Shown piece by piece: positions 25,991 to 56,355 of a DNA stretch of 64,000 nucleotides; within the stretch, counting starts at the first letter, position 1; each line of letters begins with the position of its first letter. The stretch is from positions 32,001-96,000 of IMG/VR virus record IMGVR_UViG_3300029288_000002. The stretch is one strand, 5' to 3'. Position numbers and translations under genes: made by a program. The notes beneath the pieces are model-generated. The model was not told the DNA's origin, searched no databases, and saw only the letters and a list, made by a program, of their open reading frames with translations. Source of the DNA: a virus. Its lineage: Duplodnaviria > Caudoviricetes.

Positions 25991-26287
25991 TTATTCTTCT
26001 GCATATTCATACGGATCAACTTTAATATACTCTAACCACACGTATCGAGTACCATTTTTGATTGTCAAACAACCTTGAAAATAGATTTCCCAAATCTTTA
26101 ATCCTGGAAATTCTTTTTGCATTTGAATTTTATTGACTATTTCTGATTTGAGTTCACTCCATAACGGAGGTATACTATAATCTTCGCAAACTAAATCTAA
26201 ATAGCCATCACATAACCAGAAGTCGGAGTTTGCATATTTGACTACGGTATTACCAGCAAAATGTAGAACCTGTGGCACAATGTTCAT
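25991..26287 (-). CDS. Tandem paralogue family copy 4
   Basis: 'HFAGNT..WEIYFQG'. Confidence 0.7.
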   Translation of the reverse strand: MNIVPQVLHFAGNTVVKYANSDFWLCDGYLDLVCEDYSIPPLWSELKSEIVNKIQMQKEFPGLKIWEIYFQGCLTIKNGTRYVWLEYIKVDPYEYAEE

Positions 26288-26574
26288 TCCATCTCCTGAA
26301 TATTCAAATATTGAAATGTTACCTTATATTTTTCATCTATTAGCGAAGGTTCAACCACATTTCCAAAAGCGTACACTAACCAAGAATGCCCTTCTTCATG
26401 ATTATTCCACAATGGATAATTCCTTTTAATTCTTTCACTTACAGCTTCTTCAATAATATTAACATCTGTAGAGGAGTCTTCCAGTAATTCACCAAAATTT
26501 TCCTCCCAATCATCTATTAGCAATTCTCCCCCTTCTAATGCCACACAACAACTAATTGCAAAATGAGCAGTCAT
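26284..26574 (-). CDS. Tandem paralogue family copy 3
   Basis: 'HFAISC..WLVYAFG'. Confidence 0.7.
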   Translation of the reverse strand: MTAHFAISCCVALEGGELLIDDWEENFGELLEDSSTDVNIIEEAVSERIKRNYPLWNNHEEGHSWLVYAFGNVVEPSLIDEKYKVTFQYLNIQEME

Positions 26575-26575
26575 A

Positions 26576-26890
26576 TTATAACCTCTTTATTCCATCTACA
26601 TAAAAGTCTTGTAGCAATATCCCCGCAGTTTCATCATATCTTACCACACCATCTTCTATTGTTTGGCTAATATCGTATATAATGCTTCCTGTAAAATAAA
26701 CATAGTATATCGCGTTGCTTTCTGGACTTTCTTTTGTATTGTACGCTCGCCAGATTTCCTCTTTTAGTTTACTATTATCTAATAATGCTAATGGAGTTTG
26801 TATTACTCTGGTCAATCCATAGATTACATCGCCAATTATATAGCATTGCCCTGAAAACTTTACTTCCTGCATATTATTCTTCCTCTGCAT
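26576..26890 (-). CDS. Tandem paralogue family copy 2
   Basis: 'KFSGQC..YYVYFTG'. Confidence 0.7.
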   Translation of the reverse strand: MQRKNNMQEVKFSGQCYIIGDVIYGLTRVIQTPLALLDNSKLKEEIWRAYNTKESPESNAIYYVYFTGSIIYDISQTIEDGVVRYDETAGILLQDFYVDGIKRL

Positions 26891-27158
26891 CAGTGTACGG
26901 ATCAGAACTAAGATAGTTTATATAAAACGAGTTTTTGTTTTTATTATGCACTCCCTCAAAAAATATACGCGACTCTTTATATCTCTTGTAATTACTTGCC
27001 CCTTTAATTTTTTCTATTAGTTCTTTTTCAACATCTAAAATAGTAAAACTGAGCAAGTCCCCGTCTTCTTGTATAATGTTATATATACCCAATATAAGAT
27101 TATCATTTTCTACTTCAACTGAGCAAACCCCCGCAAACTTTGTAATATTTCGTTCCAT
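26874..27158 (-). CDS. Tandem paralogue family copy 1
   Basis: 'KFAGVC..SRIFFEG'; start moved to ATG after AGGAGG. Confidence 0.7.
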   Translation of the reverse strand: MERNITKFAGVCSVEVENDNLILGIYNIIQEDGDLLSFTILDVEKELIEKIKGASNYKRYKESRIFFEGVHNKNKNSFYINYLSSDPYTDAEEE

Positions 27159-27187
27159 TCTACCTCCTTTTCGACTTTGATACATTG

Positions 27188-27261
27188 ATTATAGCATAGT
27201 ATATTAATCTTGTCAAGTACCAATATTCCTACTTGACAAGGCAATAACATCGTGCTATACT
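27188..27261. promoter_or_regulatory. Back-to-back divergent sigma70 promoters
   Basis: Minus: TTGACA(27216-27211)-17-TATAAT; plus: TTGACA(27233)-17-TATACT with TG extension. Confidence 0.85.
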
Positions 27262-27280
27262 ATAACAGAAAGGAGAGCAT

Positions 27281-27533
27281 ATGACAACAATACTACAAAA
27301 GCGTACAGAAGGCGGCTTCATAACTGTAAAACCAGAAAACGAAGTTTGGTTTTTAAAACTATTTGACATGGACTTCGGTTATCTTGTAACTCTACCAGTT
27401 ACCAGTATCAGATAAGATTATCAAACGATATTATGAGTTGGTGGAAATAGGCAGACTCGATCCTGTTAATTTTCAAGTTGTTGATGTAAACTGGTCGAAT
27501 TCGACCAGTTTAGAAAAAGGAGACTCCTTGTGA
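27281..27533 (+). pseudogene. Gene frameshifted by a 7-bp tandem duplication
   Basis: (TACCAGT)2 at 27393-27406; removing one copy gives a continuous ORF ending in a GTGA overlap with 27530. Confidence 0.7.
27487..27512. repeat. Perfect 26-bp palindrome TAAACTGGTCGAATTCGACCAGTTTA
   Basis: Read directly. Confidence 0.95.
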
Positions 27534-27862
27534 AGTATTATAGACTAATCAAATATGGTAATATTCGTTCTGCTGTATTCTTTGGTGAATACGGTAATTA
27601 TCTTTTTATTCCAGAGCCTGTTGCTCGGAATAGCAATTACGAAGGCTGTAATTGGGAATCTATTGAGGACTTGATGATTCACAGTGAGAATTTTATGCCC
27701 GATTCCCATAACTACTTTGGACTGTTGCATTTGTATTATGAATTGCAGACTTACGAAGATGACCAGCTTGTAGAAACTGCTTCTTTTTCTACTCGAAATG
27801 AGTTTCTAAAGATTATCTTTCCACTGTTACCTGCTATTGGTGAATATTTCAGAGAGGTGTAG
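27530..27862 (+). CDS. Hypothetical protein
   Basis: 110 aa, AGGAG RBS. Confidence 0.7.
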   Translation: MKYYRLIKYGNIRSAVFFGEYGNYLFIPEPVARNSNYEGCNWESIEDLMIHSENFMPDSHNYFGLLHLYYELQTYEDDQLVETASFSTRNEFLKIIFPLLPAIGEYFREV

Positions 27863-27865
27863 CTA

Positions 27866-28123
27866 ATGCTATATTCAACTTGTCTTATGGATGTCCCTTC
27901 AAAAAGCTATGAAACTTTTAGCATAGCTAAAGTGTGTGAGTTAACGTATAACTCGGATACTAAGTGCATTGTCGCTACATATGGAACTTGGTATTTTGAT
28001 ACTATCCCACAATCTGGTAGTTGGATTGGCACTCAGCATTTAGAAACTTATCTAAATGCTACTATGGAAAACTATAACCTGGCTATTGAAAACTTATTGA
28101 ATAAAGGATATACTAAACTATGA
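27866..28123 (+). CDS. Hypothetical protein
   Basis: Coupled operon; C-terminus 'LLNKGY' shared with next two genes. Confidence 0.7.
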   Translation: MLYSTCLMDVPSKSYETFSIAKVCELTYNSDTKCIVATYGTWYFDTIPQSGSWIGTQHLETYLNATMENYNLAIENLLNKGYTKL

Positions 28124-28344
28124 ATACGCAAGAGTTCACTTATTTAAAAACATCTCTAAATAAAGTCTACAGAATCTCATGGACTTATGATGTTGAAGCC
28201 GAAACAATTATCGCAACGTCTCAAACTGAAACAACTAATGGTAAAATTTCAGATTATACCTGGAATATTTATCCAAATATAACAGAAAAGGAAATGATTG
28301 CTATGCAAAAAGATTTGTATAGAAAAGGATTCAGTCTTCAATGA
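28120..28344 (+). CDS. Hypothetical protein
   Basis: ATGA overlap; ends 'LYRKGF'. Confidence 0.7.
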   Translation: MNTQEFTYLKTSLNKVYRISWTYDVEAETIIATSQTETTNGKISDYTWNIYPNITEKEMIAMQKDLYRKGFSLQ

Positions 28345-28685
28345 TTAAAAATTTTGTATTGCTAAAACAAAAGCATTTTGTTTCTACTGACTTGAGCATT
28401 GATTATCATTTGTACTTTTTAGTTTATTGTAATTATGACTGCCAAAAGTGGGTAGATTACCGCATTAAGGATAATGAGTGCCGCAAGGTTATCGGAGTCT
28501 ATTCGCAAGATGTTATTGATGATCTAAACTCTAAAGAAGATATTACATTAGAAGAAATTGAAAACCTCGCTTATGTAGATACTGTCTTTTGGGAGTGGTC
28601 TATGGAAGTTGTAGAGCCGGGTCGCTTTATGCGTAATCTAATTGCAGATGGTTATAGCCTAATTTATAAAGAAGAAGTAGACTAA
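28341..28685 (+). CDS. Hypothetical protein
   Basis: ATGA overlap; 'LIADGY'. Confidence 0.7.
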   Translation: MIKNFVLLKQKHFVSTDLSIDYHLYFLVYCNYDCQKWVDYRIKDNECRKVIGVYSQDVIDDLNSKEDITLEEIENLAYVDTVFWEWSMEVVEPGRFMRNLIADGYSLIYKEEVD

Positions 28686-29097
28686 ATATAAAACACCCAA
28701 AGAAGAAATTCTGAGGGTGTTTAACTTTTTATCACTAACCAGTACAACCGTCTATGTGAAAGTTGAATTATTTATACTTTTTAACAAAGCCCTTATGCCA
28801 AATTCAACAATTATTTTACTGTTAATTTGTGCCTTTTATAACATTGCTATACGAACCTCGTTAGTTTTTTATTATGCAAAGTCTTGTGAATTTATTTAAT
28901 TTTGTGGTGCTAATATGGTGTCACTTTATCCCGTTTATTATCTCTTTTTTGCAGGATTCTTCAATCTCAATTATGATTACATTGCTTCTATGTTTATGGA
29001 TGTATCACTATATAGTTTACTGTAGTCACTATATGCCTTGTAATTATTTTAAATACCATATAGCTAAAAAAAGACATTGTAATAAAATTGATAAACT

Positions 29098-29197
29098 TCA
29101 CAGGAAGCCCCACAATCAACGAAAATCTCTTCAAGGTCAAATACTACCTGTTTGAATTTTTCTTTCGTCTCAAGCCTTCCTGTGAGCCTACAAAGGC
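29098..29197. repeat. Dispersed core+arm element, copy A
   Basis: TCACAGGAAG..CTTCCTGTGA inverted arms around core AAGGTCAAATACTACCT (29133-29149). Confidence 0.7.
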
Positions 29198-29379
29198 AAT
29201 CTCGCGTTATATTCTAACTCAATTTTATAGTTGTAATTTCATATCAAGTTTCAACTGCTTTGTAATGCTTTTGTAACTAAAAAAAGTTAGTGCAGCGTTA
29301 CCTGAAATTAAGGGCGAAAAAGTTGAACAAAATTCGCAAAAATAATGCTCCGCTATATCGTAAAAATACGATTTTACTC

Positions 29380-29680
29380 AGTGAAACTTTTTCGCCTATT
29401 TAATATAATATATAGTTTATTGTGATTAATTAAATATATTCTAAAATATAGTATTATTTCTTTATTATAGAATCTATAGTATATTTTAGATTGATCTTAA
29501 TTAATCAGATTGATCTCTTTATAATATGATCTTAAATACTCTTTAAGTATAAAAAATGGATATTATGAAATAATATCCATTTTTTTATACTTTAAAGACT
29601 CTTTTAATAGACTCTTATAGACTCTTTTATACTTTAAAGACTCTTTTAGAATAGACTATGAGAGTCTATAATTAAATTAT
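29380..29680. other. Candidate replication origin (AT-rich, AGACTCTT repeats, long inverted repeat)
   Basis: Four AGACTCTT copies at about 29596-29645; AAGTATAAAAAATGGATATTA..TAATATCCATTTTTTTATACTT inverted repeat; inside about 1.7 kb without credible ORFs. Confidence 0.45.
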
Positions 29681-30413
29681 GTGTGCTTACCTAAACCACC
29701 ACCCATACTAACCCTAACCAAGTATTATCACACTCAATGCTGTTATCCTATTTGGCTATACCGCCTTTTATATTGTAAATAATTTGATGCTTTTCTCGTT
29801 GTATTTTTTGACTAATTTGCAGGATTGTTATATCTTTTCTATAAATTTAAGGTGCTAATACGACACCACCAGTAGTGTCACTTTAGCTATTTTTTACGTC
29901 TTTTGCTGGTTATCATTTTAGAAAACTAAGCCTTATTTCGTATATCAAAATAATAAAAATTCAACAATTTGCTTGACGACTTTTGTTGAATCTAATCCTA
30001 TTATTTATATAATTTTTATGCCTTCTTTAGTACATTTGTCTATATGCTGTTTTCTTCAATTATATAGATTCTTATACGATTCTTATAAAAGCGACTTGTT
30101 CTTTTGGCGATTGTTTGTTACATTTGTATATTCTTTGTCACTCAACTATCATATTTAGCTATTTTAGTAACATAATATATAACAACTGCCCATATCCAAT
30201 AATATACATTCTTTGTATACTATCCAATATGGGCTGTTCCTTTTTAGCTATTTTTCTGAAAATAAAGGTGAGAGTAAGACGCTTGCTAAAGACTACGCCA
30301 ACTTCGTTCCTGCGCGTCTTACGCTACGCGGTAAATGCTATACAGTGGATACACACAAATCAACTTCACCCGTCACTAAAAAATTATACCACACATTGCC
30401 ATTTTCCTTTAGT

Positions 30414-30725
30414 CTATTTCTCTGTACTCGGTGTGAGGGCAGCCATAATTATATTTTCGCTAATCCCTAATTCTATACACTTATCTATCAATTCTATAAT
30501 CTTGTTGTGACTTGTGTTATACCCTATCAGAAAATAATATAGATTCATATACCCTCTCGGTACTGCATTGTCTACAACTTTACCAATATTATATTCTAAA
30601 TTATCACTAACATTATACCCTAATGCCGATGCTATACCTTTTAGTGTATCCCTCAACTTTTTCTGATATTCTGCTTCCGGTAAATCTTCTCGCTCTCTAT
30701 GTAATTCGCTCAATGTGTATGACAT
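30414..30725 (-). CDS. Hypothetical protein
   Basis: 103 aa with AAGGA RBS. Confidence 0.65.
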   Translation of the reverse strand: MSYTLSELHREREDLPEAEYQKKLRDTLKGIASALGYNVSDNLEYNIGKVVDNAVPRGYMNLYYFLIGYNTSHNKIIELIDKCIELGISENIIMAALTPSTEK

Positions 30726-30800
30726 TATATTCCTTTTACTTAACTTATATCCAGATAAAGACGCTGCGTAAACTTGCGTCTTTCCCGCTATCGCGGGATT

Positions 30801-31211
30801 CTACCCCTCTGTTTCTCCTTTTAACTTGTTGTGCGGGCAATATCCATAGAACCCCTTTGCACAGTTACAGTTGTGACATAATATTTGATATTCAGGAGGA
30901 TAGTCATGATCTACTATATGTTTGTATATTTTTATGCTACCTCCTAATCTCTTCCTGTCTTCTGCTCCATCATTGTTTACATGATCTATCGCTAAAAACT
31001 CATATGTGCTTTCACCACAGCACGCACATTTACCACCGTAATGCTCTATACATAAGTCTCTGTATCTTTTGTTGTTTCTTCTCGCCCTCGCATTATCTTT
31101 CTCTTTGTATTTCTCATGATAATTTTTGTTTTGTTCACTCCTCGCTATCTTTTGCCTTTCTTCTTCTGGCATAGCTTTCCATTCCTTAGTGTTATGTCTC
31201 CAACGTGCCAT
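30801..31211 (-). CDS. HNH endonuclease
   Basis: 'YGGKCACCGE..LAIDHVNN..YQILCHNCNCAKG'; start moved to ATG 31211; own promoter TTGACA-16-TACAAT at 31276-31249. Confidence 0.85.
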   Translation of the reverse strand: MARWRHNTKEWKAMPEEERQKIARSEQNKNYHEKYKEKDNARARRNNKRYRDLCIEHYGGKCACCGESTYEFLAIDHVNNDGAEDRKRLGGSIKIYKHIVDHDYPPEYQILCHNCNCAKGFYGYCPHNKLKGETEG

Positions 31212-32082
31212 ATCCCTCTCCTTTGTTTTGGTTATTCCCCTCGCTATTATTGTACCATATATGCACAGTTTGTCAAGTACCACTATCTGTTACTGTATCA
31301 GTGATCCCGTTTCGTGTCTAATTCTATATCAGTGTCTATACATCTGAGTCTGTGTGCGCGTGTTATAGTTCCTATCTATTTCGTCTAATAGTGTATAGTG
31401 TTTTGTGTAATCATCTATACCTATTTTTTGTGTAAATGCGCGAGAGTTATTACTTTCTGTACACTTTATTATATTATACTGTTAATTCTAACTTATGATG
31501 CGTGAGTTTTATGTAAAATTGTTTATACGTCGTTTTATCTAATAGTGCGTGAGAGAATGTGCTATATGCCATGATACGCCTGCTACCAGACCTGACACGT
31601 ATACCTACCCCTACTCATCATATCCAACTATAATGATACTAACATCCTATACTCTTGTACATGCTACTATCTATCTAACACTAACACACAATATACTCTG
31701 ATTCCGATCCTGCTGTCATATCAGTAGCAATGTTACACGCATAGAACATATGTACTACAATGTGATACTGCGACATTGCTATTATATGAAGAGAGTATCA
31801 TCTACTGGATAGCGATTGTACATAGTGATACTGTATAGTTGTTATGATACTATCTATTGTTATAGTTGTATAGGTGTATGTGTATGTGATGATACTGGTA
31901 GGTTGGAGGCGTGTATAATATGTGATTATCATTAAATAGGACTATAATAAGAGATTAATTGTAATAGTACTACAATATACTACTATCATATGTAGCATTA
32001 CAATATATACTACTACTACACTACTACTACACATATACACAACACTACTACACACAACTCACAGTATCACACTACACAGCGT

Positions 32083-32218
32083 ATTAATAAACCGACCGTT
32101 GGTTTATTAATTATATATGATCTATCACATATAAGACGAGTCTTATATGTATCACACTGCAAGTGATACTCAAATAAGATAAACTTAGTAAAGAATCAAC
32201 TGTTAACCGGTTAACAGT
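32083..32218. promoter_or_regulatory. Cluster of four operator-like palindromes
   Basis: ATTAATAAACCGACCGTTGGTTTATTAAT; ACATATAAGAC-GA-GTCTTATATGT; GTATCAC-7-GTGATAC; ACTGTTAACCGGTTAACAGT. Confidence 0.6.
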
Positions 32219-32667
32219 AATAATATCAACATTATCATATATCAATCTATACCTGGTGATCACTATGCTATAATCTACAATAGACATATAGAATGACCTT
32301 GATCGAATATAAAACGATTGTAGACCTTGCTATACAATACTTAATATTAGTTATAGTATAACAATAGATAGTATCTAACTATATACAACACAGCAACCTT
32401 ATACAGAACTGATCCACAACATTATCAAAATGTCAATACCCCAAATCCTTACAAAATTGCAAAGTGAAAAAAGGGATATTGGTGTCAAAAAAGGGGTAAA
32501 AGCATTGACAAGGTATGGTATACTAATAGCGTAAGATGATCATTAACAAGGTAGCAAGATACACCAGCTACCACACAGGACGAAACACCTACACGCGCAA
32601 AGCGTGATATTGGATGGATTAACTGGTACGCAAGTATCAGACCTATGACAGATAAGGATTAACCAGA

Positions 32668-32838
32668 ATGAAAAAAGCTATTTTGGCAGAAATTGAACTC
32701 TTGAAAAAACAGATTGAAATGAGCGAAATTGAAGCTATCCGCGCAGGTAAAGGCTTATTAACTGCGTACAATGACGGGAAGATTGAAGGATTAAAAAGTG
32801 GTATTGCAAGTTTAGAAATTTTACTTGCAAAGCTTTAA
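32668..32838 (+). CDS. Hypothetical protein, 56 aa (not in ORF track)
   Basis: MKKAILAEIELLKKQIE..; AAGGA RBS; followed by 15-bp perfect hairpin 32855-32886. Confidence 0.7.
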   Translation: MKKAILAEIELLKKQIEMSEIEAIRAGKGLLTAYNDGKIEGLKSGIASLEILLAKL

Positions 32839-32912
32839 TCACTTAACCGCGATATTCCTACTACTCTCACCTGAGAGTAGTAGGAAACCCAGACTCGAAA
32901 AAGGATAGCAGA

Positions 32913-33065
32913 ATGAAACACAGGAATATTTTGAACATCCGGGCTACATGCGCAAACGCGGCATTGGTAAGAGCCATCACTTGTGATGGCTGGTTCAAAA
33001 CTCCCCACACATGGAATTACAGTAATACCATTAATACCATTACTGTAATATGGAAAAAACCATGA
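32913..33065 (+). CDS. Hypothetical protein, 50 aa
   Basis: AAGGA RBS; terminator follows. Confidence 0.55.
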   Translation: MKHRNILNIRATCANAALVRAITCDGWFKTPHTWNYSNTINTITVIWKKP

Positions 33066-33078
33066 ACCTTAGAACCTT

Positions 33079-33101
33079 AAACCGCCGCAAGGCGGTTTTT
33101 T
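33079..33101 (+). terminator. Intrinsic terminator
   Basis: AAACCGCC-GCAA-GGCGGTTTTTT. Confidence 0.85.
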
Positions 33102-34638
33102 GTTGTCTTCTTACAAACTTACTTAGTTAACCTTACTAACTAAGTATAAAATCGCTCATATTGCACAATAATCACGTCATACACGCGCGTACACAGCAAT
33201 AATCATAGATTCTCGTGTTAAAGTAGTGCATCTTACACGATGCAAGCGAGAGTCATGCCTCCATTACGCAGAGTCAAGGATATTCAGACTTTTGAATGTC
33301 TTTGCGCGATTCGTGTTTTTTATATCACAAGATCACAGACTCCTGTGCATTTTTAGACACCTTGTATACAATAAAGCACACTGTTTACAAATAGACACAG
33401 TGTATAATAATCAACACAGAGTCTATTATCTAACACCGTGTACGATAACAGACAAGTGTACAGAATCCAACAAAATGTATCATATACAAAACGAGTATAC
33501 AATTGTAAACGAATAGACACAAGATCACGTCAATTTTAGCTTCACATGCGAATAGAACAAAAGTTTATTTTTAAAACCTTAAGAATCTTAAAAATTAGTA
33601 TAAAGATAATACAATAATGGCATAACTAAAATAAAGAAAATTGAAAGTACAATAGAAAATTTACAGAAAATCAATATTTTAGAATTTACAAAAACGGCTA
33701 TACTGGCTATCATCCTTTTTAAAATTGCGTTCTGGTGGCATCGTACAAGCGAGTTTAAGAATATTATGTTCTATTGAATAATATTAAGTTTTGAGTTTAA
33801 GAATCTTGAGTTTTCATACTTCTTTTTAGCTATAGAATTGAATATTTTGTATTTTCTTTTAGTCAATTTGAATTTAATCAATGTACCGGTCGGTATAACA
33901 TGCGAATTGTGAATATTCAGACTCGTTCTATCAGAAAATACTCATGCCTGTATAATATTATGACATATAATGTCTTATATACATAGGTAAACAACGTATA
34001 CTGCACAAATAATGATCTGATCAATAGAGTCAATAGAATCAATAAGATTATAAATATGATTAGAACAAAATATCTAATCATATGATCATTACAAGAATAG
34101 TCAACATACCAATTTATTAGTTGAAAATATAGCGAATTTGTACAAATTGATCGAACAGCCATTGTATGACACTGAGAAGGGCTGAGAGCGATTTTAAAAA
34201 ATAAAGGTATATTATGACCTGTGAGCTTTAGTGCATATAAAAGTGGTGAAAAGATAGAAGATTCTACGCACAATAAATAGTACACAACAAAAAGAGTATG
34301 AATCTGTAAAGTTTATAGTGTACATCATAAAGTTGTAAAATTGCGCAGTTTATAGTGTACAGGTAAATGTATACACTGTTATACTTAATATTAGTAAACA
34401 ATAAAATTGTAAAAAGTTATACTCATTATAGAGACAACAAATAATATATAAAATTATAGAATAAATAGTACAAACTGCGGATGACTGCTTTCCAACCGCT
34501 TGTATAAGGTTGCAGTCATGGAGACGAGTCAAACATTATACAAGACGTACCAGGTGACAATCAAGTTAGTGTAATATATACGTTTAGTTAAAATCGGCGG
34601 AATATTGCATATAATGGAAGATAGCCGAAACACTGAGT

Positions 34639-34755
34639 AAAATCGCGCTCAACCCTTCCTGGTGGCGCACAAGGGCAACTGGTATATAAAGGTCAAACAC
34701 TACCTTATGACGGTTAAAATCGCTCTCACTCGTTCTGGAGGGCTTGCAGGGGTAT
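34639..34755 (+). repeat. Dispersed core+arm element, copy C (two arms in tandem)
   Basis: AAAATCGCGCTCAACCCTTCCTGGTGGCGCACAAGGGC, then AAGGTCAAACACTACCT-10-AAAATCGCTCTCA.. Confidence 0.7.
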
Positions 34756-34929
34756 TGTAGCATAGAGTCTAAAAATGAATAGAACTATAATTTTAGTTGC
34801 AGCCCAGGCGTATAGAACAAATTACAACTATTGATAGAACAAATTGTAATTATCTTGCAACACACAGAAACCGAAATAGTGCTATCATAAGCATAGAAAT
34901 TCTACTACTCACAAAAAGGACACTTTCCG

Positions 34930-35145
34930 ATGAAACAAACCATTGCTTTACTTTTAGTTGTTGCGATCATCTTAGTCGCGTTCGTATTCGTAGTTTTGCC
35001 AGCGTTCAACGCGCTGGCAAACAACCCGGGTGAAGCAATTCGCCAAAACTACGCCTCCGCCGAAGAAGCGCAGCAGCAGCTCGAAACAAAAATGCAAAAT
35101 TGCGAGAATGACTTCTCTCAATGCGTGAATATCCTGCAACCGTAG
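34930..35145 (+). CDS. Small membrane-anchored/secreted protein
   Basis: N-terminal hydrophobic helix; RBS; terminator 35161-35190. Confidence 0.75.
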   Translation: MKQTIALLLVVAIILVAFVFVVLPAFNALANNPGEAIRQNYASAEEAQQQLETKMQNCENDFSQCVNILQP

Positions 35146-35325
35146 ACCCCCACACACAACAAAAAAGAGACTCTAACCAGTCTCTTTTTTAGTACCTGCA
35201 AATAGAACAAAATTTCTATCACGCAGGTACTACACCAGGATGACAATTAGAACATTTGTACCCTTTACAGGTGGTAAAAATCGAGTAAAATAAAGGTACA
35301 ATCTTTTTAGTCATGGAGTTTTACA

Positions 35326-35496
35326 ATGTCATACACAGTCATTTTAACAATGTCTAACGGCGAAACTCGCCCGACAAACCAATATTTTAGCAACCCCCAA
35401 ACCGCGATCATGGTTGCAAAAATAATCGAGAACCATGTTGCAGGGGTTGTATCTGCAACCCCGATTCCGGTTGTGGTGCCGGGCACAATCGTCTGA
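35326..35496 (+). CDS. Hypothetical protein, 56 aa (not in ORF track)
   Basis: GGAG RBS; upstream promoter; terminator 35517-35554. Confidence 0.65.
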   Translation: MSYTVILTMSNGETRPTNQYFSNPQTAIMVAKIIENHVAGVVSATPIPVVVPGTIV

Positions 35497-35516
35497 TAGA
35501 TTATACCTGCTACCAC

Positions 35517-35554
35517 AAAAAAACGAGAGTCTGCCGGTCAGACTCTCGTTTTTT
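35517..35554. terminator. Bidirectional intrinsic terminator
   Basis: A7-CGAGAGTCTG..CAGACTCTCG-T6. Confidence 0.85.
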
Positions 35555-35702
35555 GTTGCTTCTCTGTGTCCTATAAAATATGTAAAAACGGTGAGAATTT
35601 GACCAAGAATTAGTAACACCAAAACGCCAAAATCGTGTATAATCAATATCGTAGCAAGTTGAGAGCGGAAACGCTCCAAACCAACAACTTGCGGAGGAAA
35701 AA

Positions 35703-35906
35703 ATGGCAGTGAAATTTTACGGCAAACAGCAGGAAGAATACGAGTCAATTTGCGCACAATTGCGCGAAATTGAAGAAGAAGTAGAACGCGAATATATACC
35801 GCCAACAGTTGCACAAAACCTTAAAAATTTTGTGCGCAATAACGTTGTTAGTGTATACGCACGCTCTATCCTACTTCACATCGAATTATTTTTTCGTAAT
35901 TTGTAA
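35703..35906 (+). CDS. Hypothetical protein
   Basis: GGAGG RBS; terminator 35925-35955. Confidence 0.7.
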   Translation: MAVKFYGKQQEEYESICAQLREIEEEVEREYIPPTVAQNLKNFVRNNVVSVYARSILLHIELFFRNL

Positions 35907-36576
35907 ATAATTTTTATTATTTTTAAACCGCTATCCCTACCAGATAGCGGTTTTTGTTGTCTTAAAGTGTCCTATAAAACAACGATTTTACGGCTGGTCG
36001 GTAAACTATCCTATAAAATGGTAATTTTAGGTATAATTTGTCATATTTGTAGGTATAAAAATACCCCAGGTGGCAATCACCTGGGGTATAGTATACAAGA
36101 CTAAAGATAATTACGTGCATATTCGAGATCATTATCTGTAATAATGATCTCGCGGCGGGCGTTCCACACGCGCAAGCGAGGAAGGTCAACCAATTCGCCG
36201 TTTTCGTCAATTTTTGACGAAACGTTTAGATTCAAGGGTTCGTAAAAACGCGGCGTAAAGTGTAACACTTTGCATACCTTACGCGCTGTAGACGAAAGAA
36301 AATTTGCAGTAAACATTTTACAATTCCTTTTTTCAAAATTTCAGAATATCATCATATACCAGTATAGCCTTTTTTTATTGCCAAAAAATGACTTTCTAAA
36401 AACGATAGAAATTATACCTGGTGAAACCTACTTAAAGATAGTACGTAGATAAAAATTACCTTTTATGTCTGAAAACTGGTAGGAATAACTCCCTACCAGT
36501 TTTATTTTACCTATTGACAAAATAAGGATGATCGGTTAAGATGATAGCATACTCCGATTACAAAGGAATTACAGCA

Positions 36577-36984
36577 ATGGAAATTACAACCGCAAACTTA
36601 GACAAGGTTCTACATACACCAGGGTTAAAATCCTTGTGTGTTGAATTGGTAGCAAAGCGCAAAGAAGTTGAAAATTTGCGTAAAATTGTTGACTCTTTGT
36701 GGTTAGAATTTACTGGTGTACCTGAGAATAGGTCGTACCAGTTAGAAGAAAATATTTTTCGGCGGGCATTAATTGACATTGACCGGATTTTAAAAGAAGA
36801 AGGAATTAAACCCTTATCAATGGATATGGAACGCTGCCCGTTTTTAGTTGCACAAAACGAATTAAACCTCATCGAAAATAAAATTTTAGATATTACTGCG
36901 AAACCGTTTAATTTAAATATGGATTTGCTAAAAAATAGGCAATTATGGTTAGCCAAAATTCTGGAGGGGATGAAATACCAGTAA
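36577..36984 (+). CDS. Hypothetical early protein
   Basis: TTGACA-17-TAAGAT promoter, AAGGA RBS, terminator 37000-37030. Confidence 0.75.
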   Translation: MEITTANLDKVLHTPGLKSLCVELVAKRKEVENLRKIVDSLWLEFTGVPENRSYQLEENIFRRALIDIDRILKEEGIKPLSMDMERCPFLVAQNELNLIENKILDITAKPFNLNMDLLKNRQLWLAKILEGMKYQ

Positions 36985-37135
36985 ATAATTTTCACGCAGT
37001 AAAGCGAGTCTGACAGTCAGACTCGCTTTTATTTTAGCTATAAATTAGAACAAAGATTCTACCATTTTACCCTTGACTCTGGGGTAGGATATGGTAAGAT
37101 AGTAGCATACTCTGATTTAAGGATGATAACAAACC

Positions 37136-37459
37136 ATGAATACCAGCGTTAAACACTTTGAGCGAAACGGCTTTCCAGAATTTTTGCAAGATATTTCAGG
37201 CGATAATTTGCCATTGTACGTTAAAAAGTTTTTTGAAAGTAAACCATATGAAAAGGCTTTACACACAAAAAACGGAAAAGTTAGCTACTTTGTACCATGC
37301 AAGAACGCGCCCGTAAATGTATACCTTTCACGTCATTTTATTTTACCTGATAATTTAGCCCATCAATTATACTGGAAAATTACGATCAATCAGGTAATTT
37401 ATTATCTGATGTATGACCGTGATAACACCTGTTATGCTGTAGCTGTAGAAATAGCATAA
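37136..37459 (+). CDS. Hypothetical early protein
   Basis: Promoter-RBS-ORF-terminator cassette. Confidence 0.75.
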   Translation: MNTSVKHFERNGFPEFLQDISGDNLPLYVKKFFESKPYEKALHTKNGKVSYFVPCKNAPVNVYLSRHFILPDNLAHQLYWKITINQVIYYLMYDRDNTCYAVAVEIA

Positions 37460-37650
37460 TAACCCAAACCGCTTGACGTAAAAATCAAGCGGTTAAATTT
37501 TAGCCACAAATCAGACAAAATTTACCATAAAAAGAAGATTTTATCTGAGAATTTGCGCCAAACCTGATAGGCTAAAAGGCTTGACAAAATAAAGTACTTG
37601 AGATAAAATCAATACAGATTGACCAACCTATGACCAAAGAGGATAACGCT

Positions 37651-38001
37651 ATGAGCAATTATTACCGCACTACGTTAGAAACGCCTGAAGAAAAAAAGAC
37701 GGGTTTAACAAGTATCCAACAGGATGTTATTGTTACCTTTTCAAGTCTTATTGAACAAAGGATTAAGGTTTATACAAACCTTAATAACAACGGTTCTCAA
37801 ATGGGTGAGAAGTGGTGTAAAGCGCAAGACAAGAAAATGGATAAGATGTATACCCGTGAGCAAGAATTAATGACGGGATGGGGTATTACCCTTGATTATC
37901 CCGGGCTTTATCCTTGCTACAATTTCACCCATAACGGAAAGAGTTATCAGGAATTAAGTCTTGTAAATGCTTTCCGCAGAATAAACGGATTTTACGACTA
38001 A
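37651..38001 (+). CDS. Hypothetical early protein
   Basis: TTGACA-17-TAAAAT, GAGGA RBS, terminator 38022-38049. Confidence 0.75.
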   Translation: MSNYYRTTLETPEEKKTGLTSIQQDVIVTFSSLIEQRIKVYTNLNNNGSQMGEKWCKAQDKKMDKMYTREQELMTGWGITLDYPGLYPCYNFTHNGKSYQELSLVNAFRRINGFYD

Positions 38002-38154
38002 AATTGTCATATTCTCACTTGAAACCGCGTATACTGATACGCGGTTTTTGTTGGTCAAACCGGTATAAAATAAGTTTACAAAAACCCTTGACATGGGATA
38101 ATTTTGTGGTAAAATGGTTATAGAGTAAGATATACTACTAACAAGGATTAAACA

Positions 38155-38514
38155 ATGCACACTTTTGAGATTGAACGCGCAATTAAGGATTATTGCTTAG
38201 TTAATCGCTTGAAGATTTTTCCGAAATTTTCAGCGGTTGTCAAGAATAAACCGTCAGTATGTATAAATGACATTATAGACGATACAGAAGAATTTGAATG
38301 CGATTATTACCACTTATCAGAACCCCTTATTATAGACATATACGACAATAATACTTTAGTATTACACTGTGAAGATTTTCCACTTGACCCTTATCACCTG
38401 AAAATTTTGATTGTAAATTTTCAAAACTGCGTAGCATGGGATTTAAGAGATGTTTGTAGTAATGCTTTGAGCGAATTGCGGCGTTATACTGACATTAAAC
38501 CGCCAAAACAATAA
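38155..38514 (+). CDS. Hypothetical early protein
   Basis: Cassette; terminator 38537-38569. Confidence 0.75.
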   Translation: MHTFEIERAIKDYCLVNRLKIFPKFSAVVKNKPSVCINDIIDDTEEFECDYYHLSEPLIIDIYDNNTLVLHCEDFPLDPYHLKILIVNFQNCVAWDLRDVCSNALSELRRYTDIKPPKQ

Positions 38515-39041
38515 AATATTTTCGCTCCCGTCTACAGAAATAGCCTATACTCGCAGTATAGGCTATTTCTATTCTGGTAAAATTTTCGCTCAAAATTTGC
38601 CCGAAAATTGCTTATACCAATTGCTTGACAAAACAAAATAACCATGCTACAATCAGACCAGATTGAAATACTGACAGAAAAGGACAGCTAAAATGGACGA
38701 GTACAAGGTTTGGTTGCAAATGGAGAAGGATTATAGCCAACAAAGGATTGATGCCATTGCTCACCCTTCTTGGTTTCGTGATCCTAACTATGTAGAACAT
38801 TGCGATAAGATGCTGGTGATTATCCGTGATAACCTTAAACGGTTAGAACAAAGTTAAATTAAAATTTTCGCTCAAAGAATAGGCTATACAGGTATTGTAT
38901 AGCCTATTTATGTTAGTAAAAGCACGGTTTTATCATCAGATTCATCAGATCATTACAAAATAGTTGCAAAGGTTGAAAAGGCTTGCGTTTTATATTTTTT
39001 GTGATAAACTATATATAATCTTAGGTGAAAAGGAAACCGAA

Positions 39042-39233
39042 ATGAGATCAACAATTAACGCCAGTGAAGCTACTTCTATTTTGAAAATTTTACGCGGGGT
39101 TTCGCGTGAAAAAAGGTGCGTGGTTTGTGGTAAACCTATTCCAACGAAATATTGGTTTTTTGAGTTTACCGGAAACCATGCTGTAGGTTTATGCCAACAT
39201 TGTAAGCCTGCGCAAACTGTAATTTACTACTAA
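39042..39233 (+). CDS. Small zinc-finger protein
   Basis: CVVC..CQHC; start after AAGGA. Confidence 0.7.
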   Translation: MRSTINASEATSILKILRGVSREKRCVVCGKPIPTKYWFFEFTGNHAVGLCQHCKPAQTVIYY

Positions 39234-39385
39234 TTAGACAAAATACCTCAGATTATTCTGGGGTATTTTGTTGTCAGTATTTCATTGCAACTATCTTGCA
39301 ACGAAATTGCAATGCACAAAAAGGATATTCTGTGATAAGATTAGTACATCGAACAAGGATTTTATCACTGAAAGGACTTGCACAC

Positions 39386-39793
39386 ATGGACGAATCTAGT
39401 GAAAAAATGATTTCTCGTAAATTCGAGGTTGCTGCCGGTACGAATGAAAACGGCGAGTATGAAGTGTACGCCAGTGAAGTATGGCATGATAATTTTCGCA
39501 ATAAGGACTATGATTATAGTCGTTGGATGTCATGCCATGAAACGCAAGAGCAAGCGAAACACGAAGCTGCCCAAATGAACAAGGGTTGTTATTACTGGAA
39601 ACCTTTTGGCCAATCAGCAAAGAAGCTGGCGTTATATCATAGTCATAAGGTTAATATGTTGGGTTGTGTTATTTGCAACGATAATGACACTTGGAACGTT
39701 TATTCTAGTGATACTGCAACCACTGAAAGAATCGGAAGTGAAAAAAAGGTAAATGTAGCAATGACATTGTTAGAAAATTACTACACAAAATAA
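39386..39793 (+). CDS. Hypothetical early protein
   Basis: Start after AAGGA; terminator 39811-39843. Confidence 0.75.
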   Translation: MDESSEKMISRKFEVAAGTNENGEYEVYASEVWHDNFRNKDYDYSRWMSCHETQEQAKHEAAQMNKGCYYWKPFGQSAKKLALYHSHKVNMLGCVICNDNDTWNVYSSDTATTERIGSEKKVNVAMTLLENYYTK

Positions 39794-40111
39794 TCAAAAA
39801 ATTACTCGACAAAATAGGCTATACTTTGCAGTATAGCCTATTTATTTTACCTTGTTTTGTACAATTTTCCTTGTATAAAAATACACTTTTATATGTAATT
39901 TGCGCGTGAGCCTTTGCGGAGGCGTACAAGTGTATTTTTAGTTTAACTGGTATTTCATCGTTTTCACTGGTAAAATCGCTTAGAATCGCTCCCAATAAAC
40001 TACACAGGCATTGTATAATAGGAGTTTACCGCAAAACTGGTTAATATTGGGGTATTGACAGATAAAAAAGAATGTGATATGATGAAACCAATCTTAGGAA
40101 AGGATTAAACC

Positions 40112-40723
40112 ATGAAAAAAGAAAGAATGATAGAAATACCTGATCAAAATAGCTATACTGGTTATTCCAGTATAGAAGTTGAGTTTTTAGGGAAAGGTTC
40201 TTTCTGTACTTGCTATGTTTGGCAACCTGTACTAGAAGATATTTGGGTAATCTCTTTTCTGAGAATCGGAAATAAAGAATCTGATTATAGTAAAGAAGCA
40301 ATCGCGCTTTACTGCGATAATTCGTTTATACCCCAGATTGAAAACTTAGGGTATAGTAAAGATGAACGATTTATGGTATTCAAATCACCTTTTTACGCTA
40401 AACTTGAGAAGAAGTTTACAGAAGCATGGTTGCAAGCAAAAATGCTGAAAAAAGCATATGACGAAATTGTATATACCTCTGATAACCGCAAATTAACCGG
40501 CTATGAGATTAATCTAAAAATCATAGATCGCTTGACTGAAATGAATTTGAATGAGCGTTTATTAGATGCACTAATCGAATTAAACGACTCACTATGCAAT
40601 TATGATGACAGTTACCGTTTTGAATTTCCTACCAGAAATTTAAAGGTAGATGAAAAGGGTAATTTAATCCTGTTAGATGTAATTTTCAACAGTAAAGCGT
40701 TACGGGATCGCTTTGAAAGTTAA
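40112..40723 (+). CDS. Protein-kinase-like protein (atypical)
   Basis: Gly loop 'FLGKGSF', catalytic-loop-like 'EFPTRNL', 'LILLD'; own promoter and terminator. Confidence 0.6.
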   Translation: MKKERMIEIPDQNSYTGYSSIEVEFLGKGSFCTCYVWQPVLEDIWVISFLRIGNKESDYSKEAIALYCDNSFIPQIENLGYSKDERFMVFKSPFYAKLEKKFTEAWLQAKMLKKAYDEIVYTSDNRKLTGYEINLKIIDRLTEMNLNERLLDALIELNDSLCNYDDSYRFEFPTRNLKVDEKGNLILLDVIFNSKALRDRFES

Positions 40724-40879
40724 AAATAAATTTACTCCAACAAACAAAAAAGACGGCTAACGACCGTCTTTTATTTTGCATAGAAATATGACAATTTTTA
40801 TACAAAACATCAGATTGTCAAAAAGGCTTGACAATTCCCAAAAAGAGAGTAAAATTATAGACAAGAAAGGAACTAAGCT

Positions 40880-41089
40880 ATGGATACAATCGAGTTTACA
40901 AAGTTAGATGAAAACATGCAAGAAACAATTAGCTTGTATGCTTACATGAATAATTGTACAATCGAAGATTTTTTGCGCTTGTTTTGGGTAATTGTGCTTG
41001 ATACCCATTTTCGCTATTTGTTAGACAGTGAAATGACAAAATCATTTTACACGATATTCTGCGAAATGGGTTATAAACTGGTGATTTAA
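40880..41089 (+). CDS. Hypothetical protein
   Basis: Promoter + RBS. Confidence 0.7.
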   Translation: MDTIEFTKLDENMQETISLYAYMNNCTIEDFLRLFWVIVLDTHFRYLLDSEMTKSFYTIFCEMGYKLVI

Positions 41090-41155
41090 CCTTTTCGCCC
41101 GTGATATGGTAAACTTAGCAAGGCTTAACCAACCACTAAGAAGGAGGAATTAGCC

Positions 41156-41380
41156 ATGAAAAAGCAAAAACAGCAACTGCAGTCATACTCTTTCAAAAGA
41201 GAAATGATTATTATATTTGTCAATAGTCAAACTGATGATCAATTAGACCCCTCTATTTTTCAAAAATTTATTATTACAGGTGAAGCGATTCATTCTGCAG
41301 GATTGGGTAACTGGTTAGTAAAATCTACCAGTATTGACTTACTAAACAACAAAATGTTTGTGTATCTTGAACCAGTATAA
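41156..41380 (+). CDS. Hypothetical protein
   Basis: AGGAGG RBS. Confidence 0.7.
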   Translation: MKKQKQQLQSYSFKREMIIIFVNSQTDDQLDPSIFQKFIITGEAIHSAGLGNWLVKSTSIDLLNNKMFVYLEPV

Positions 41381-41493
41381 TCTTTTCTCGTAGTAATAGA
41401 ACAAAGATTCTATAGAAAAAGGCTTGACAAATAGCAAGAAAGGGCTATAATTATTACATACTGACAGAAGGAAAAAAGGACAATACAACAAAC

Positions 41494-41688
41494 ATGAAAC
41501 GGTTAATCGCAGAAGCTATTTTGAATGTTTTGACCAGCCGATGGTTTCAGAACTGGTATCGGTCTGGTAATTTTTACAAATACCTTACCTCTACAGGTAA
41601 AGTAATTCCTACTAAAGTCCAGATATTGCAAGAAATCGAAAATAATTTTCTTGAATATGTGGACTTTTCAAACGAGGTAGCAAAATGA
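41494..41688 (+). CDS. Hypothetical protein
   Basis: TTGACA-16-TATAAT promoter. Confidence 0.7.
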   Translation: MKRLIAEAILNVLTSRWFQNWYRSGNFYKYLTSTGKVIPTKVQILQEIENNFLEYVDFSNEVAK

Positions 41689-42037
41689 AATACATTCTAG
41701 GCGCATGTTTAGCCACCAGAAAAAAATATGCGCGTATTTTACACAGGAACAACGAGTAAATACAGGCGAATGGATTGAATGGCAAGAAATTTCAGGATTT
41801 GATTTAGCGTGTGAAACATGGAAGTTTTTTACAGGTAACGATCTGAAAGAAGAAGATTTTAACTAAACAAATAAAAAGACTTCTCCCACAAAGAGAAGTT
41901 TTTATTTAGTTATAATCTTGACAATATTTATCTATAAAATACAAAATTTACGCGCAAATTAGCCTGAAAACTGGTCATAAGAACCCTTGACTCTGGGTGA
42001 ATTTGTGGTAAAATAGATTTAATCTTTCAGACATAAG

Positions 42038-53130: not shown

Positions 53131-53263
53131 ATGTGATATTTTAGTTGTAAATTCTCATGTTTAAACATGAGAATTTTGTTATAAAATTGCAATATTTTGC
53201 CTATTGTAATTTTGACAGAATGTAGTATAATGATTATATCTTGATAAGGAAAGGACATAAGCA

Positions 53264-54761: not shown

Positions 54762-54872
54762 CTGAGCATCATTACAAGTTTTTGCGCCAGGCTCTACGGA
54801 CAAAGAAGAAGTAAGCGAAAAACAGAGAAGATCATAGCCGAATTGGAGCTAATCGAAGGAGAGGAAAGCTGA
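54762..54872 (+). pseudogene. tnpA: C-terminal remnant of IS607-type serine-recombinase TnpA
   Basis: Translates to LSIITSFCARLYGQRRSKRKTEKIIAELELIEGEES*, the IS607 TnpA C-terminal signature; TGATG-coupled to tnpB. Confidence 0.85.
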
Positions 54873-56101
54873 TGCAACTGGTAGAGCAGCACGTAATCCG
54901 CAAGGGTGACAACCGATATGCAGAGATTGACCGTGCCTGCTTTGCATCGAAGAACCTCTACAATCTGGCAACATACACTGTTCGACAGGCTTTCATCGCG
55001 GATGAAAGCAATTACCTGAATTGGTACGCAGTGGATAAGATACTGCAATCGTCGGAAGCCTATCAGACTTTACCGGCAAAAGTATCTCAGCAAGTTCTCA
55101 AACAAGTGCATGAGACCTGGATAGGCTTCTTTGCCGCAATCAAGGTTTGGAAAGCCAATCCGGGTGCATTTCTTGGCCGGCCACGCATGCCTGGGTATAA
55201 AGACAAGCAGTCGGGTCGGAATATGCTGATCTATACTGACCAGGCATTCAGCAAGAAAAGCCTGAGAGAGGGGATCATCAAGCCCTCAAGGCTGAATATA
55301 GAGGTGAAAACAAGACAAACGCGGATTAATCAGGTCAGGATCATTCCGCGCAATAGGTTCTATGTGGTTGAGGTAGTGTACACGCGAGAACCGATACAGG
55401 CCGAATTGGATGCAGGGCTTGTGGCTGGGATAGACATTGGATTGAACAATTTAGCCACTCTAACATCAAACAAACCTGGGTTTCGACCAGTGATTGTTAA
55501 CGGGAGGCCGCTGAAGTCGCTCAATCAATTCTACAACAAGCGCAAAGCGGAACTGCAATCCAGACTAGCGAATGGTCAGCACACCTCAGAGCAAATCATC
55601 AGGCTTTCTATCAAGCGCAATTGGAGAATACGGCACTACCTGCATACTACCAGCCGTAGGTTCGTTGAACTTTTGGTAAAAGAACGGATTGCCACACTGA
55701 TTGTAGGAAAAAACAGCGCATGGAAACAGGAGATCAACCTGGGTACGAGAACCAATCAGAACTTCGTTTCTATTCCTCATGCGCAACTGATCGAGATGCT
55801 GCGATATAAGTGCCAGCTTGTTGGGATTGAAGTCATTATCCATGAAGAGAGCTACACCTCAAAGTGTTCTTTCCTGGATATGGAACCAATCGAAAAGCAT
55901 GAGACCTACCAGGGCAAGCGCATCAGTCGGGGCATGTTCCGTTCTGCTACAGGTGAAAAGATCAACGCCGACGTAAACGCCGCATACAATATCATCCGAA
56001 AAGTAATCCCCAATGCTTTTGCTGAGGGGATAGTGGGGCTTGTAGTTGCCCCTGTCAGATTTACTCTGCAAACCAAGATTGCCTCATTTTGTGGCAGTTA
56101 A
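54872..56101 (+). CDS. tnpB: TnpB RNA-guided nuclease
   Basis: 'SKNLYN', 'RPRMPGYK', RuvC-I 'GIDIGLNNL', 'EESYTSKCS', RuvC-III 'NADVNAAYNI'. Confidence 0.92.
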   Translation: MQLVEQHVIRKGDNRYAEIDRACFASKNLYNLATYTVRQAFIADESNYLNWYAVDKILQSSEAYQTLPAKVSQQVLKQVHETWIGFFAAIKVWKANPGAFLGRPRMPGYKDKQSGRNMLIYTDQAFSKKSLREGIIKPSRLNIEVKTRQTRINQVRIIPRNRFYVVEVVYTREPIQAELDAGLVAGIDIGLNNLATLTSNKPGFRPVIVNGRPLKSLNQFYNKRKAELQSRLANGQHTSEQIIRLSIKRNWRIRHYLHTTSRRFVELLVKERIATLIVGKNSAWKQEINLGTRTNQNFVSIPHAQLIEMLRYKCQLVGIEVIIHEESYTSKCSFLDMEPIEKHETYQGKRISRGMFRSATGEKINADVNAAYNIIRKVIPNAFAEGIVGLVVAPVRFTLQTKIASFCGS

Positions 56102-56142
56102 GGAAACTATAATATTATTATACAATTGAAAAGGAGATTGAT

Positions 56143-56355
56143 ATGAGCAAACCCGTTTTGAATCATTATTGGTTCAGTAAAAAACAATTGGTATTAGCGC
56201 GAGAAATAATAAGAGAAATAGACTATAAGGACACATATTGTAATATTAATGGTGATGTTTTACAATATACAGAATGCACTTCTTCGAGCCATCCTCTTGG
56301 CACATGGGATGATTATAAATATCTAGGTATTGGCGTATTCGATCACGCAGAATAG
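56143..56355 (+). CDS. Hypothetical protein
   Basis: AAGGAG RBS. Confidence 0.7.
   Translation: MSKPVLNHYWFSKKQLVLAREIIREIDYKDTYCNINGDVLQYTECTSSSHPLGTWDDYKYLGIGVFDHAE

Follow-up and report, generated by a model that had tools for sequence, protein, structure and literature searches.

What are several perfect palindromes, all different from one another, doing side by side in a stretch of phage DNA that holds no genes? The question is raised by IMG/VR virus record IMGVR_UViG_3300029288_000002, a large tailed phage of 165,307 bp from a landfill metagenome, which is rated complete by CheckV and whose circle is closed solely through a 127-bp assembly overlap. Bases 32001–96000 of this record were analysed (64,000 bp, the window; positions are those of the window unless stated otherwise). 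An initial annotation, made from the letters alone, had described a dense array of operator-like palindromes at 32083–33146 (P1 to P5 below) and read it as a decoy for unrelated families of host transcription factors. The palindrome cluster is real and non-random. Judged by its sequence, one of its members, P4, is a genuine cellular operator type, identical letter for letter. The reading that we favour, with a probability of about 0.4, is that the palindromes are double-stranded-DNA operators for dimeric DNA-binding proteins, gating early rightward transcription in a central control region; we infer the protein binding, the identity of the proteins and the regulatory outcome.

The feature is a variant of the palindrome-rich non-coding control region of large phages, which is itself known. 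Kilobases of non-coding DNA with no evident role are common in the early regions of large phages, and the repeat regions of T5 have gone unexplained for decades. Here, one element of such a tract (P4) can be tied to concrete candidate ligands, namely a HigA-type antitoxin or a LacI/MarR-type repressor, neither of them apparently phage-encoded. If proteins of the host or of a mobile element do bind, a virulent-type phage would read or disturb toxin-antitoxin or metabolic regulators by DNA sites alone; if there is no such binding, the tract would be an ordinary, though unusually ornate, promoter and origin region.

The palindrome cluster

Four inverted repeats lie within 136 bp (32083–32218) of a tract that is gene-free by a Shine-Dalgarno and codon-usage screen (31212–32667, about 1.4 kb), three of them with perfect arms of 10–11 bp. 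P1 (32083–32111) is an A+T-rich, perfect 11-7-11 inverted repeat, P2 (32127–32150) a perfect 11-2-11 inverted repeat, P3 (32149–32169) a 7-7-7 inverted pair that overlaps the end of P2, and P4 (32199–32218) a perfect 20-bp palindrome with no loop. P5 (33120–33146), a perfect 10-7-10 inverted repeat, follows 22 bp past a terminator and overlaps a weak promoter-like site with the −10 hexamer TAAAAT. Every palindrome is single-copy in the 165-kb genome. The coordinates and sequences of all five had been given correctly in the initial annotation, as had the placement of four of them in gene-free DNA.

That annotation had also proposed a comparison of palindrome density with dinucleotide-shuffled sequence, and the outcome is clear: 500 dinucleotide shuffles of 32060–32240 averaged 0.006 inverted repeats with arms of at least 10 bp and never (0/500) reached three, the number that the real sequence contains. 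On a larger scale, palindromes other than terminators occur at 1.5 per kb in the zone from 27.2 to 36.5 kb and at 0.24 per kb in the rest of the genome, a roughly sixfold difference. The five are rightly set apart from terminators, since none combines a G+C-rich stem with a T run; P1, P2, P4 and P5 have two to four G/C pairs per arm and no run of T or A.

Outside these five, the sites that had been named alongside them look different on inspection. The one at 32364–32382 is no palindrome in its own right and forms part of the right arm of a 19-bp inverted repeat (32357–32375), and those at 33882 and 35987 are poor, imperfect repeats. A 10-bp palindrome does exist at 33362, although it sits inside a 19-bp tandem-repeat array. 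No duplicated module was detected when 32040–32420 was aligned locally to 33800–34150, 35900–36150 and 27150–27560, the scores being no better than those of shuffles. A single large dyad was rejected, as the inverted-repeat pairs have no common centre; a 330-bp imperfect inverted alignment (z about 3.8 against a weak null) is suggestive only. Genome-wide, there are seven perfect zero-loop palindromes of at least 18 bp, where about one is estimated to arise by chance. Two perfect palindromes without a spacer have the common core TCATGTTTAAACATGA, one of 20 bp (G000:C1 15634–15653) and one of 28 bp (window 53149–53176), and could be operators or endonuclease targets at the two loci.

P4 and its cellular counterparts

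The 16-mer core of P4 was scanned in one genome per prokaryotic species, which gave at least 120 listed loci. Among these matches, the 18-mer is exact in 33 loci and the full 20-mer in six. Of the 33 18-mer loci listed, 22 have a HigB-like toxin gene no more than 700 bp away, and 19 of these also carry an HTH_3 HigA gene, whereas the remaining 87 of the at least 120 loci have neither a HigB-like nor a HigA gene. At the higBA loci, the palindrome stands between a TTGACT −35 and a TAAT(A/C)T −10 hexamer, directly upstream of higB, a position from which we infer that HigA binds it. The P4 18-mer is thus the palindrome between −35 and −10 of the higBA promoter/operator in 22 listed bacterial loci. 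The phage differs from these in that it has neither higB nor higA, so that P4 does not lie between the −35 and −10 of a higB-higA promoter, and its flanks are not homologous to theirs; the hexamers that flank P4 in place of −35 and −10, TCAACT and TAATAA, are weak equivalents with three to four of six consensus matches.

A further cellular context is that of LacI-family operators, which are central-CG palindromes beside autoregulated lacI-type genes. In seven of the at least 120 loci, a LacI-family open reading frame (ORF) stands no more than 350 bp from the exact P4 16-mer, where about 0.2 would be expected by our own estimate; a LacI-family ORF occurs anywhere within 8 kb in ten loci among the matches listed, and it is adjoining in seven of these ten. 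The seven are mostly Bacillota, with one from Treponematales and one from Haploplasma. Unlike generic LacI operators, P4 does not fit the TGNAANCGNTTNCA spacing, a consensus that has no match within one mismatch in 27186–36540. The outer C/G at ±9 places P4 with the higBA class, whereas the LacI-linked sites have A/T there. In addition, a two-mismatch version precedes a MarR gene by 25 bp on a Staphylococcus plasmid, and the 16-mer was found in one contig only of IMG/VR. P4 therefore fits a HigA/XRE, a LacI and nearly a MarR context equally, and sequence alone names no family. The 18-mer also occurs without higBA in a second family of seven loci (Bryobacterales, Terriglobia), where it forms the centre of a longer palindrome, GGAAAG...CTTTCC; one of these loci has a phage-integrase-family gene beside the 18-mer.

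The initial annotation had assigned its sites to five host regulator families. What survives of this is the identity of P4 with cellular helix-turn-helix operators; the labels themselves are mostly unsupported, as P4 names no single family and the rest have no family association. P2 had been read as an ArsR/SmtB 12-2-12 operator, yet its core, present at 105 metagenome loci and often at the tip of longer hairpins, has neither ArsR nor any other regulator family enriched among 86 neighbouring ORFs (the most frequent, PadR, accounts for 2/86). The P1 and P5 patterns were each found in three viral contigs, always in coding sequence or terminators, and plasmid searches gave E-values of at least 0.6. 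P3 had been counted as a separate operator; because it is an inverted pair of the local AGTATCAY repeat described below, it is not one. Twenty Firmicute regulator consensus sequences, including those of CcpA, Rex, HrcA, Fur, PerR, CodY, Spo0A, LexA and DnaA, are not enriched in the zone. LexA boxes were also considered as such and set aside, with no CGAAC-N4-GTTCG match within two mismatches in the region and no enrichment in the window, and the region holds no cluster or pairs of DnaA boxes.

Candidate ligands were also sought in the phage itself, by a six-frame search of the whole genome at Pfam level. It found no HTH_3 (PF01381), MarR (PF01047), ArsR/HTH_5 (PF01022), HTH_17 or sigma-70 region 2 domain, and no homologue of HigA, HigB or LacI; the tested ORFs around the cluster match no family. 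Matches below threshold comprise TetR_N (PF00440; 17 bits, 56125–56199), RHH (13 bits) and a LacI-like match (PF00356; 13 bits) inside a LAGLIDADG endonuclease. The earlier statement that no cognate regulators are encoded can thus be extended to the whole genome at the Pfam level, and it reaches no further, most of the phage proteins being of unrecognised fold. A raised-G+C island (47%; window 54872–56199) contains a transposase gene (409 amino acids (aa), phrog_506), followed by an 80-aa frame with a weak TetR_N-like helix-turn-helix.

A proposed control region between divergent gene arms

The two gene arms of the phage diverge in a gene-poor 9-kb zone (27.2–36.5 kb). The minus-strand arm encodes a YonO-like single-subunit RNA polymerase, the portal and the large terminase, and the plus-strand arm the phage's own DNA polymerase, clamp, primase and ribonucleotide reductase. 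The stretch from 28.6 to 36.6 kb contains no more than eight small gene-like ORFs, and the gene-free tracts of the zone span about 28.7–30.4, 31.2–32.7 and 33.1–34.9 kb. Phage promoters come close to the consensus TTGACA-17-TATAAT, and the genome is rich in intrinsic terminators. The hosts of its distant relatives are Bacillus, Clostridium and Enterocloster. The relatives and the sequence signals together point to a Bacillota host.

The control region would be the gene-free tract that runs from the leftward promoter at 31276 up to the first rightward unit. At its left edge stands a strong minus-strand sigma-A-type promoter (31249–31276; TTGACA-16-TACAAT with a TG extension) that drives an HNH endonuclease gene (30801–31211). 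The first rightward unit (32668–33098, plus strand) consists of two ORFs of 56 aa (32668–32838) and 50 aa (32913–33065), neither of which gave a family match or an atlas lead, and an intrinsic terminator (33079–33098). Between the two ORFs is a perfect 15-2-15 hairpin without a T run (32855–32886), which might serve for processing, for attenuation or as a further protein site. On the plus strand upstream of this unit are a promoter-like TTAACA-16-TATCAT (32211–32238; 10/12 consensus matches), whose −35-like hexamer is overlapped by P4, and an extended −10 element, TGCTATAAT (TGnTATAAT; 32266–32274), 50 bp downstream of P4. A 14-mer of the latter element is identical to the −10 region of a consensus promoter at 27188–27216. 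P1 to P4 sit some 30–200 bp upstream of the predicted rightward start sites. The assertion that most of the palindromes are not at promoters is therefore wrong for the main cluster, where P4 overlaps a −35-like hexamer upstream of TGCTATAAT, and P5 too overlaps a promoter-like site.

The palindrome cluster lies at the edge of an AGTATCAY repeat array (31571–32170), in which eight exact copies of AGTATCA fall in about 600 bp, mostly on the minus strand up to about 31950 and on the plus strand beyond it; shuffles hold 0.5 on average (maximum 4), and elsewhere in the 165-kb genome there are at most two to three per 600 bp. It also lies inside a perfect long-range inverted repeat of 19 bp (31846–31864 and 32357–32375) that brackets the palindromes and the rightward promoters, whereas the longest separated inverted repeat in 300 shuffles averaged 11 bp and never exceeded 16 bp. 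A bipartite TRTACA-N17-TATCAT is present in three minus-strand copies (31633–31917) and is absent from the rest of the genome; the copies may be weak promoter-like sites directed leftward, or two-part binding sites. Strand skew is extreme over blocks of about 100–150 bp (31810–32080), with C depleted at 31810–31960 and G depleted at 31990–32080.

The perfect dyads, their single copies, the unremarkable RNA fold and the position between divergent units are those expected of ordinary operator logic. With P4 over a −35-like hexamer and P1 to P4 upstream of the rightward starts, bound proteins would gate early rightward transcription, possibly assisted by looping between the 19-bp inverted repeats and by a protein that binds the AGTATCAY array. 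For P4 at least, the reader is probably a host protein or one from a co-resident mobile element, because the phage has no recognisable helix-turn-helix, RHH or sigma protein and P4 is identical to cellular operators. The phage would then sense the state of its host through P4 rather than soak the protein up, as phi29 does with host Spo0A and GIL01 with LexA.

Several findings weigh against operators that gate early transcription. P4 alone of the five palindromes is linked to any known cellular regulator, its flanks share no homology with higBA promoters, and the higBA loci with the 18-mer are mostly from Burkholderiales and Acidobacteriota, whereas the signals of the phage indicate a Bacillota host. 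With four palindromes that all differ, as many ligands would be implied, an unusual number for one promoter region. The rightward promoters are predicted only, and the regulated unit amounts to just two tiny ORFs without an assigned function. An origin or a packaging structure could just as well account for the AGTATCAY array, the skew blocks and the 19-bp inverted repeat. Finally, the many unrecognised folds among the phage proteins make a phage-encoded ligand of a new kind possible.

A bolder and quite unlikely version of operator binding would make the cluster a docking module, in which P4 binds a HigA-type antitoxin or a HigBA complex and the other palindromes bind other cellular dimeric regulators. 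Loss of the labile bound proteins may then trigger an early counter-measure unit; alternatively, the sites, amplified a hundred-fold by replication, may titrate the proteins and so rewire host defence and metabolism via non-coding DNA alone.

Among the closest known systems, the divergent early/late switch region of Bacillus phage phi29 combines p4 sites with host Spo0A boxes, and the host regulator lets a virulent phage read the state of its host. That region and the tract analysed here are both short and intergenic, with divergent promoters and several inverted-repeat sites for proteins, putative ones in our phage. In phi29, however, a single phage protein acts on a set of similar sites, and the host sites conform to a known consensus, whereas here there are four different palindromes and no recognised phage regulator. 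Untranslated Repeat Regions 1–3 of the T5 left terminal repeat, with the injection stop signal (Davison, bioRxiv 10.1101/866236), are likewise kilobase-scale non-coding DNA among small early genes. Both they and the tract contain direct repeats, inverted repeats and several different palindromes, and both are split by an HNH endonuclease gene; host-protein binding has been proposed for both. The T5 regions, in contrast, have a mapped terminal repeat and eight paired DnaA boxes and are conserved in 25 relatives, while the phage tract has unmapped ends, no DnaA boxes and no close relatives.

Origin, packaging, decoy and RNA explanations

Among the other explanations, a replication origin, or some other nucleoprotein site bound by an initiator, deserves the most weight, although on balance we consider it unlikely. 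The AGTATCAY repeats would be the targets of the initiator, with the palindromes as auxiliary binding sites or hairpin and primosome-loading sites. The genome-wide cumulative minima of AT-skew (31933) and GC-skew (35941) fall where the gene arms diverge, the array has no counterpart in the rest of the genome and its repeats point either way, the 19-bp inverted repeat is present, and the single-stranded DNA fold of 31540–32420 beats shuffles (z = −4.5); a phage with its own polymerase, clamp and primase moreover needs an origin. The skew is confounded with the direction of transcription, however, and the three most A+T-rich 120-bp windows of the zone begin at 29397, 33559 and 34350, some 1.4–2.7 kb from the cluster, the first two adjoining distinct 19-bp tandem-repeat arrays with an equal or better claim to be the origin. 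No DnaA-box cluster is present, the repeats are 8-mers where iterons typically have 17–22 bp, and no adjoining initiator gene was identified.

The same repeats could instead serve packaging, a terminus or injection, in the manner of the T5 terminal repeat, although we think this improbable. In its favour, about 5 of the 8 kb at 28.7–36.5 kb are non-coding and combine tandem repeats, inverted repeats, palindromes, single-gene cassettes and an HNH gene, a make-up that the T5 regions repeat down to the HNH insertion (bioRxiv 10.1101/866236), and the pac site of SPbeta is intergenic and beside the yonO RNA polymerase operon (bioRxiv 10.1101/2021.11.22.469490). The circle rests on the assembly overlap, so the physical ends are unplaced. 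Paired DnaA boxes like those of T5 are absent from the region, however. As a rule, pac sites are found within or close to the small terminase gene, which here would be about 20 kb from the tract. The relative PMBT24 is a pac-type headful packager (PMC11035940), which also tells against packaging at the tract.

The decoy or sponge mechanism that had been proposed for the locus, in which the sites titrate host regulators or antitoxins as the genome amplifies and so alter host expression or defence, or else coat the entering DNA, has no direct support, and no feature of the sequence demands it; we rate it as physically plausible but very unlikely. It would account for palindromes that are perfect, 'idealised' and all different from one another, and for an operator such as P4 that is identical to a cellular one in a phage without the cognate protein; titration of operators by multicopy DNA is established (PMC8599769, PMC3322331). 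Yet every site is single-copy in 165 kb, even if genome replication could raise the copy number, and the cluster is placed like ordinary promoter control sites, with P4 and P5 overlapping promoter-like sites. Just 1/5 of the palindromes is linked to any cellular regulator, and a literature search gave no precedent for a phage DNA decoy of transcription factors. Least probable of all is an RNA role, in which the palindromes would form hairpins in a non-coding transcript or an extended 5' leader; its transcription would start near 31920 and run rightward, or cross the tract leftward. A TATAAT at 31914–31919 is indeed followed by a G-free tract and then by three perfect hairpins, and about 390 nt of leader precede the first rightward ORF. 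The RNA fold of 31920–32420, however, is no more stable than that of shuffles (z = −0.95), no Rfam match was obtained even at E ≤ 1, no terminator lies downstream of the hairpins, the hexamer at 31914 has neither a −35 element nor a proper TGn extension, and P4 has no loop, which is typical of duplex DNA sites.

Three further ideas were rejected. For an invertible switch, a search for serine recombinases found none, the single tyrosine recombinase lies at a distance of 46 kb and no strand-changing joints were seen in the contigs; for a partition site, no ParB was found; and for a promoter or terminator of the YonO-like polymerase, the YonO promoter sequence is not established (PMC5467207). The tyrosine recombinase gene, the only one of the genome, is a 349-aa ORF (PF00589, E 2e-20; G000:C1 17735–18784).

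Relatives and neighbouring elements

Relatives that would allow a comparison of the tract are scarce. The best match of the phage RNA polymerase among 5.8 billion proteins is 41% identical, and the IMG/VR search gave no relative; megablast and blastn searches of the region against phage records returned solely an 80-bp match to Salmonella phage Munch (79%, E 3e-6). The same phage is present in a groundwater metagenome of another study, at low depth and free of substitutions over 16 kb (window 26000–42000), and a copy identical in sequence provides no comparative signal. One groundwater contig of higher depth is shifted by 1 base (31852/31855) within the left arm of the 19-bp inverted repeat. 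In the distant relative PMBT24, an ORF-poor zone spans the record ends and three low-complexity, A+T-only palindromes stand upstream of the RNA polymerase gene; nothing comparable to the cluster of complex palindromes was found there.

The remainder of the gene-poor zone contains further elements on both sides of the tract. At its left end (27186–27512), back-to-back consensus divergent promoters have a common 11-10-11 inverted repeat (27209–27240), and a perfect 26-bp palindrome (27487–27512) lies between two small plus-strand ORFs, its outer bases loosely resembling BirA-type TGTAAACC half-sites (3 mismatches). The most A+T-rich 120-bp window of the whole genome (29397–29516, 13% G+C) is followed by a 16-3-16 bidirectional terminator (29551–29585) and 3.3 copies of a 19-bp tandem repeat with the core AGACTCTT (29583–29657); together, 29397–29657 is a good alternative candidate for an origin. 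To the right, in a gene-free tract of 1.9 kb (33066–34929), two overlapping 19-bp tandem-repeat arrays (TAGACACACTGTATACAA-like, 33354–33442) adjoin a window of 17% G+C (33559–33678). A dispersed 38-bp element ending in GAGAGCGATTTTA occurs in both orientations (34158–34196, 34638–34676 and 34714–34736). The motif (G)TGTCCTATAAAA, at 35569, 35970 and 36009, stands directly past terminators and before small genes, and may represent a phage-specific promoter class.

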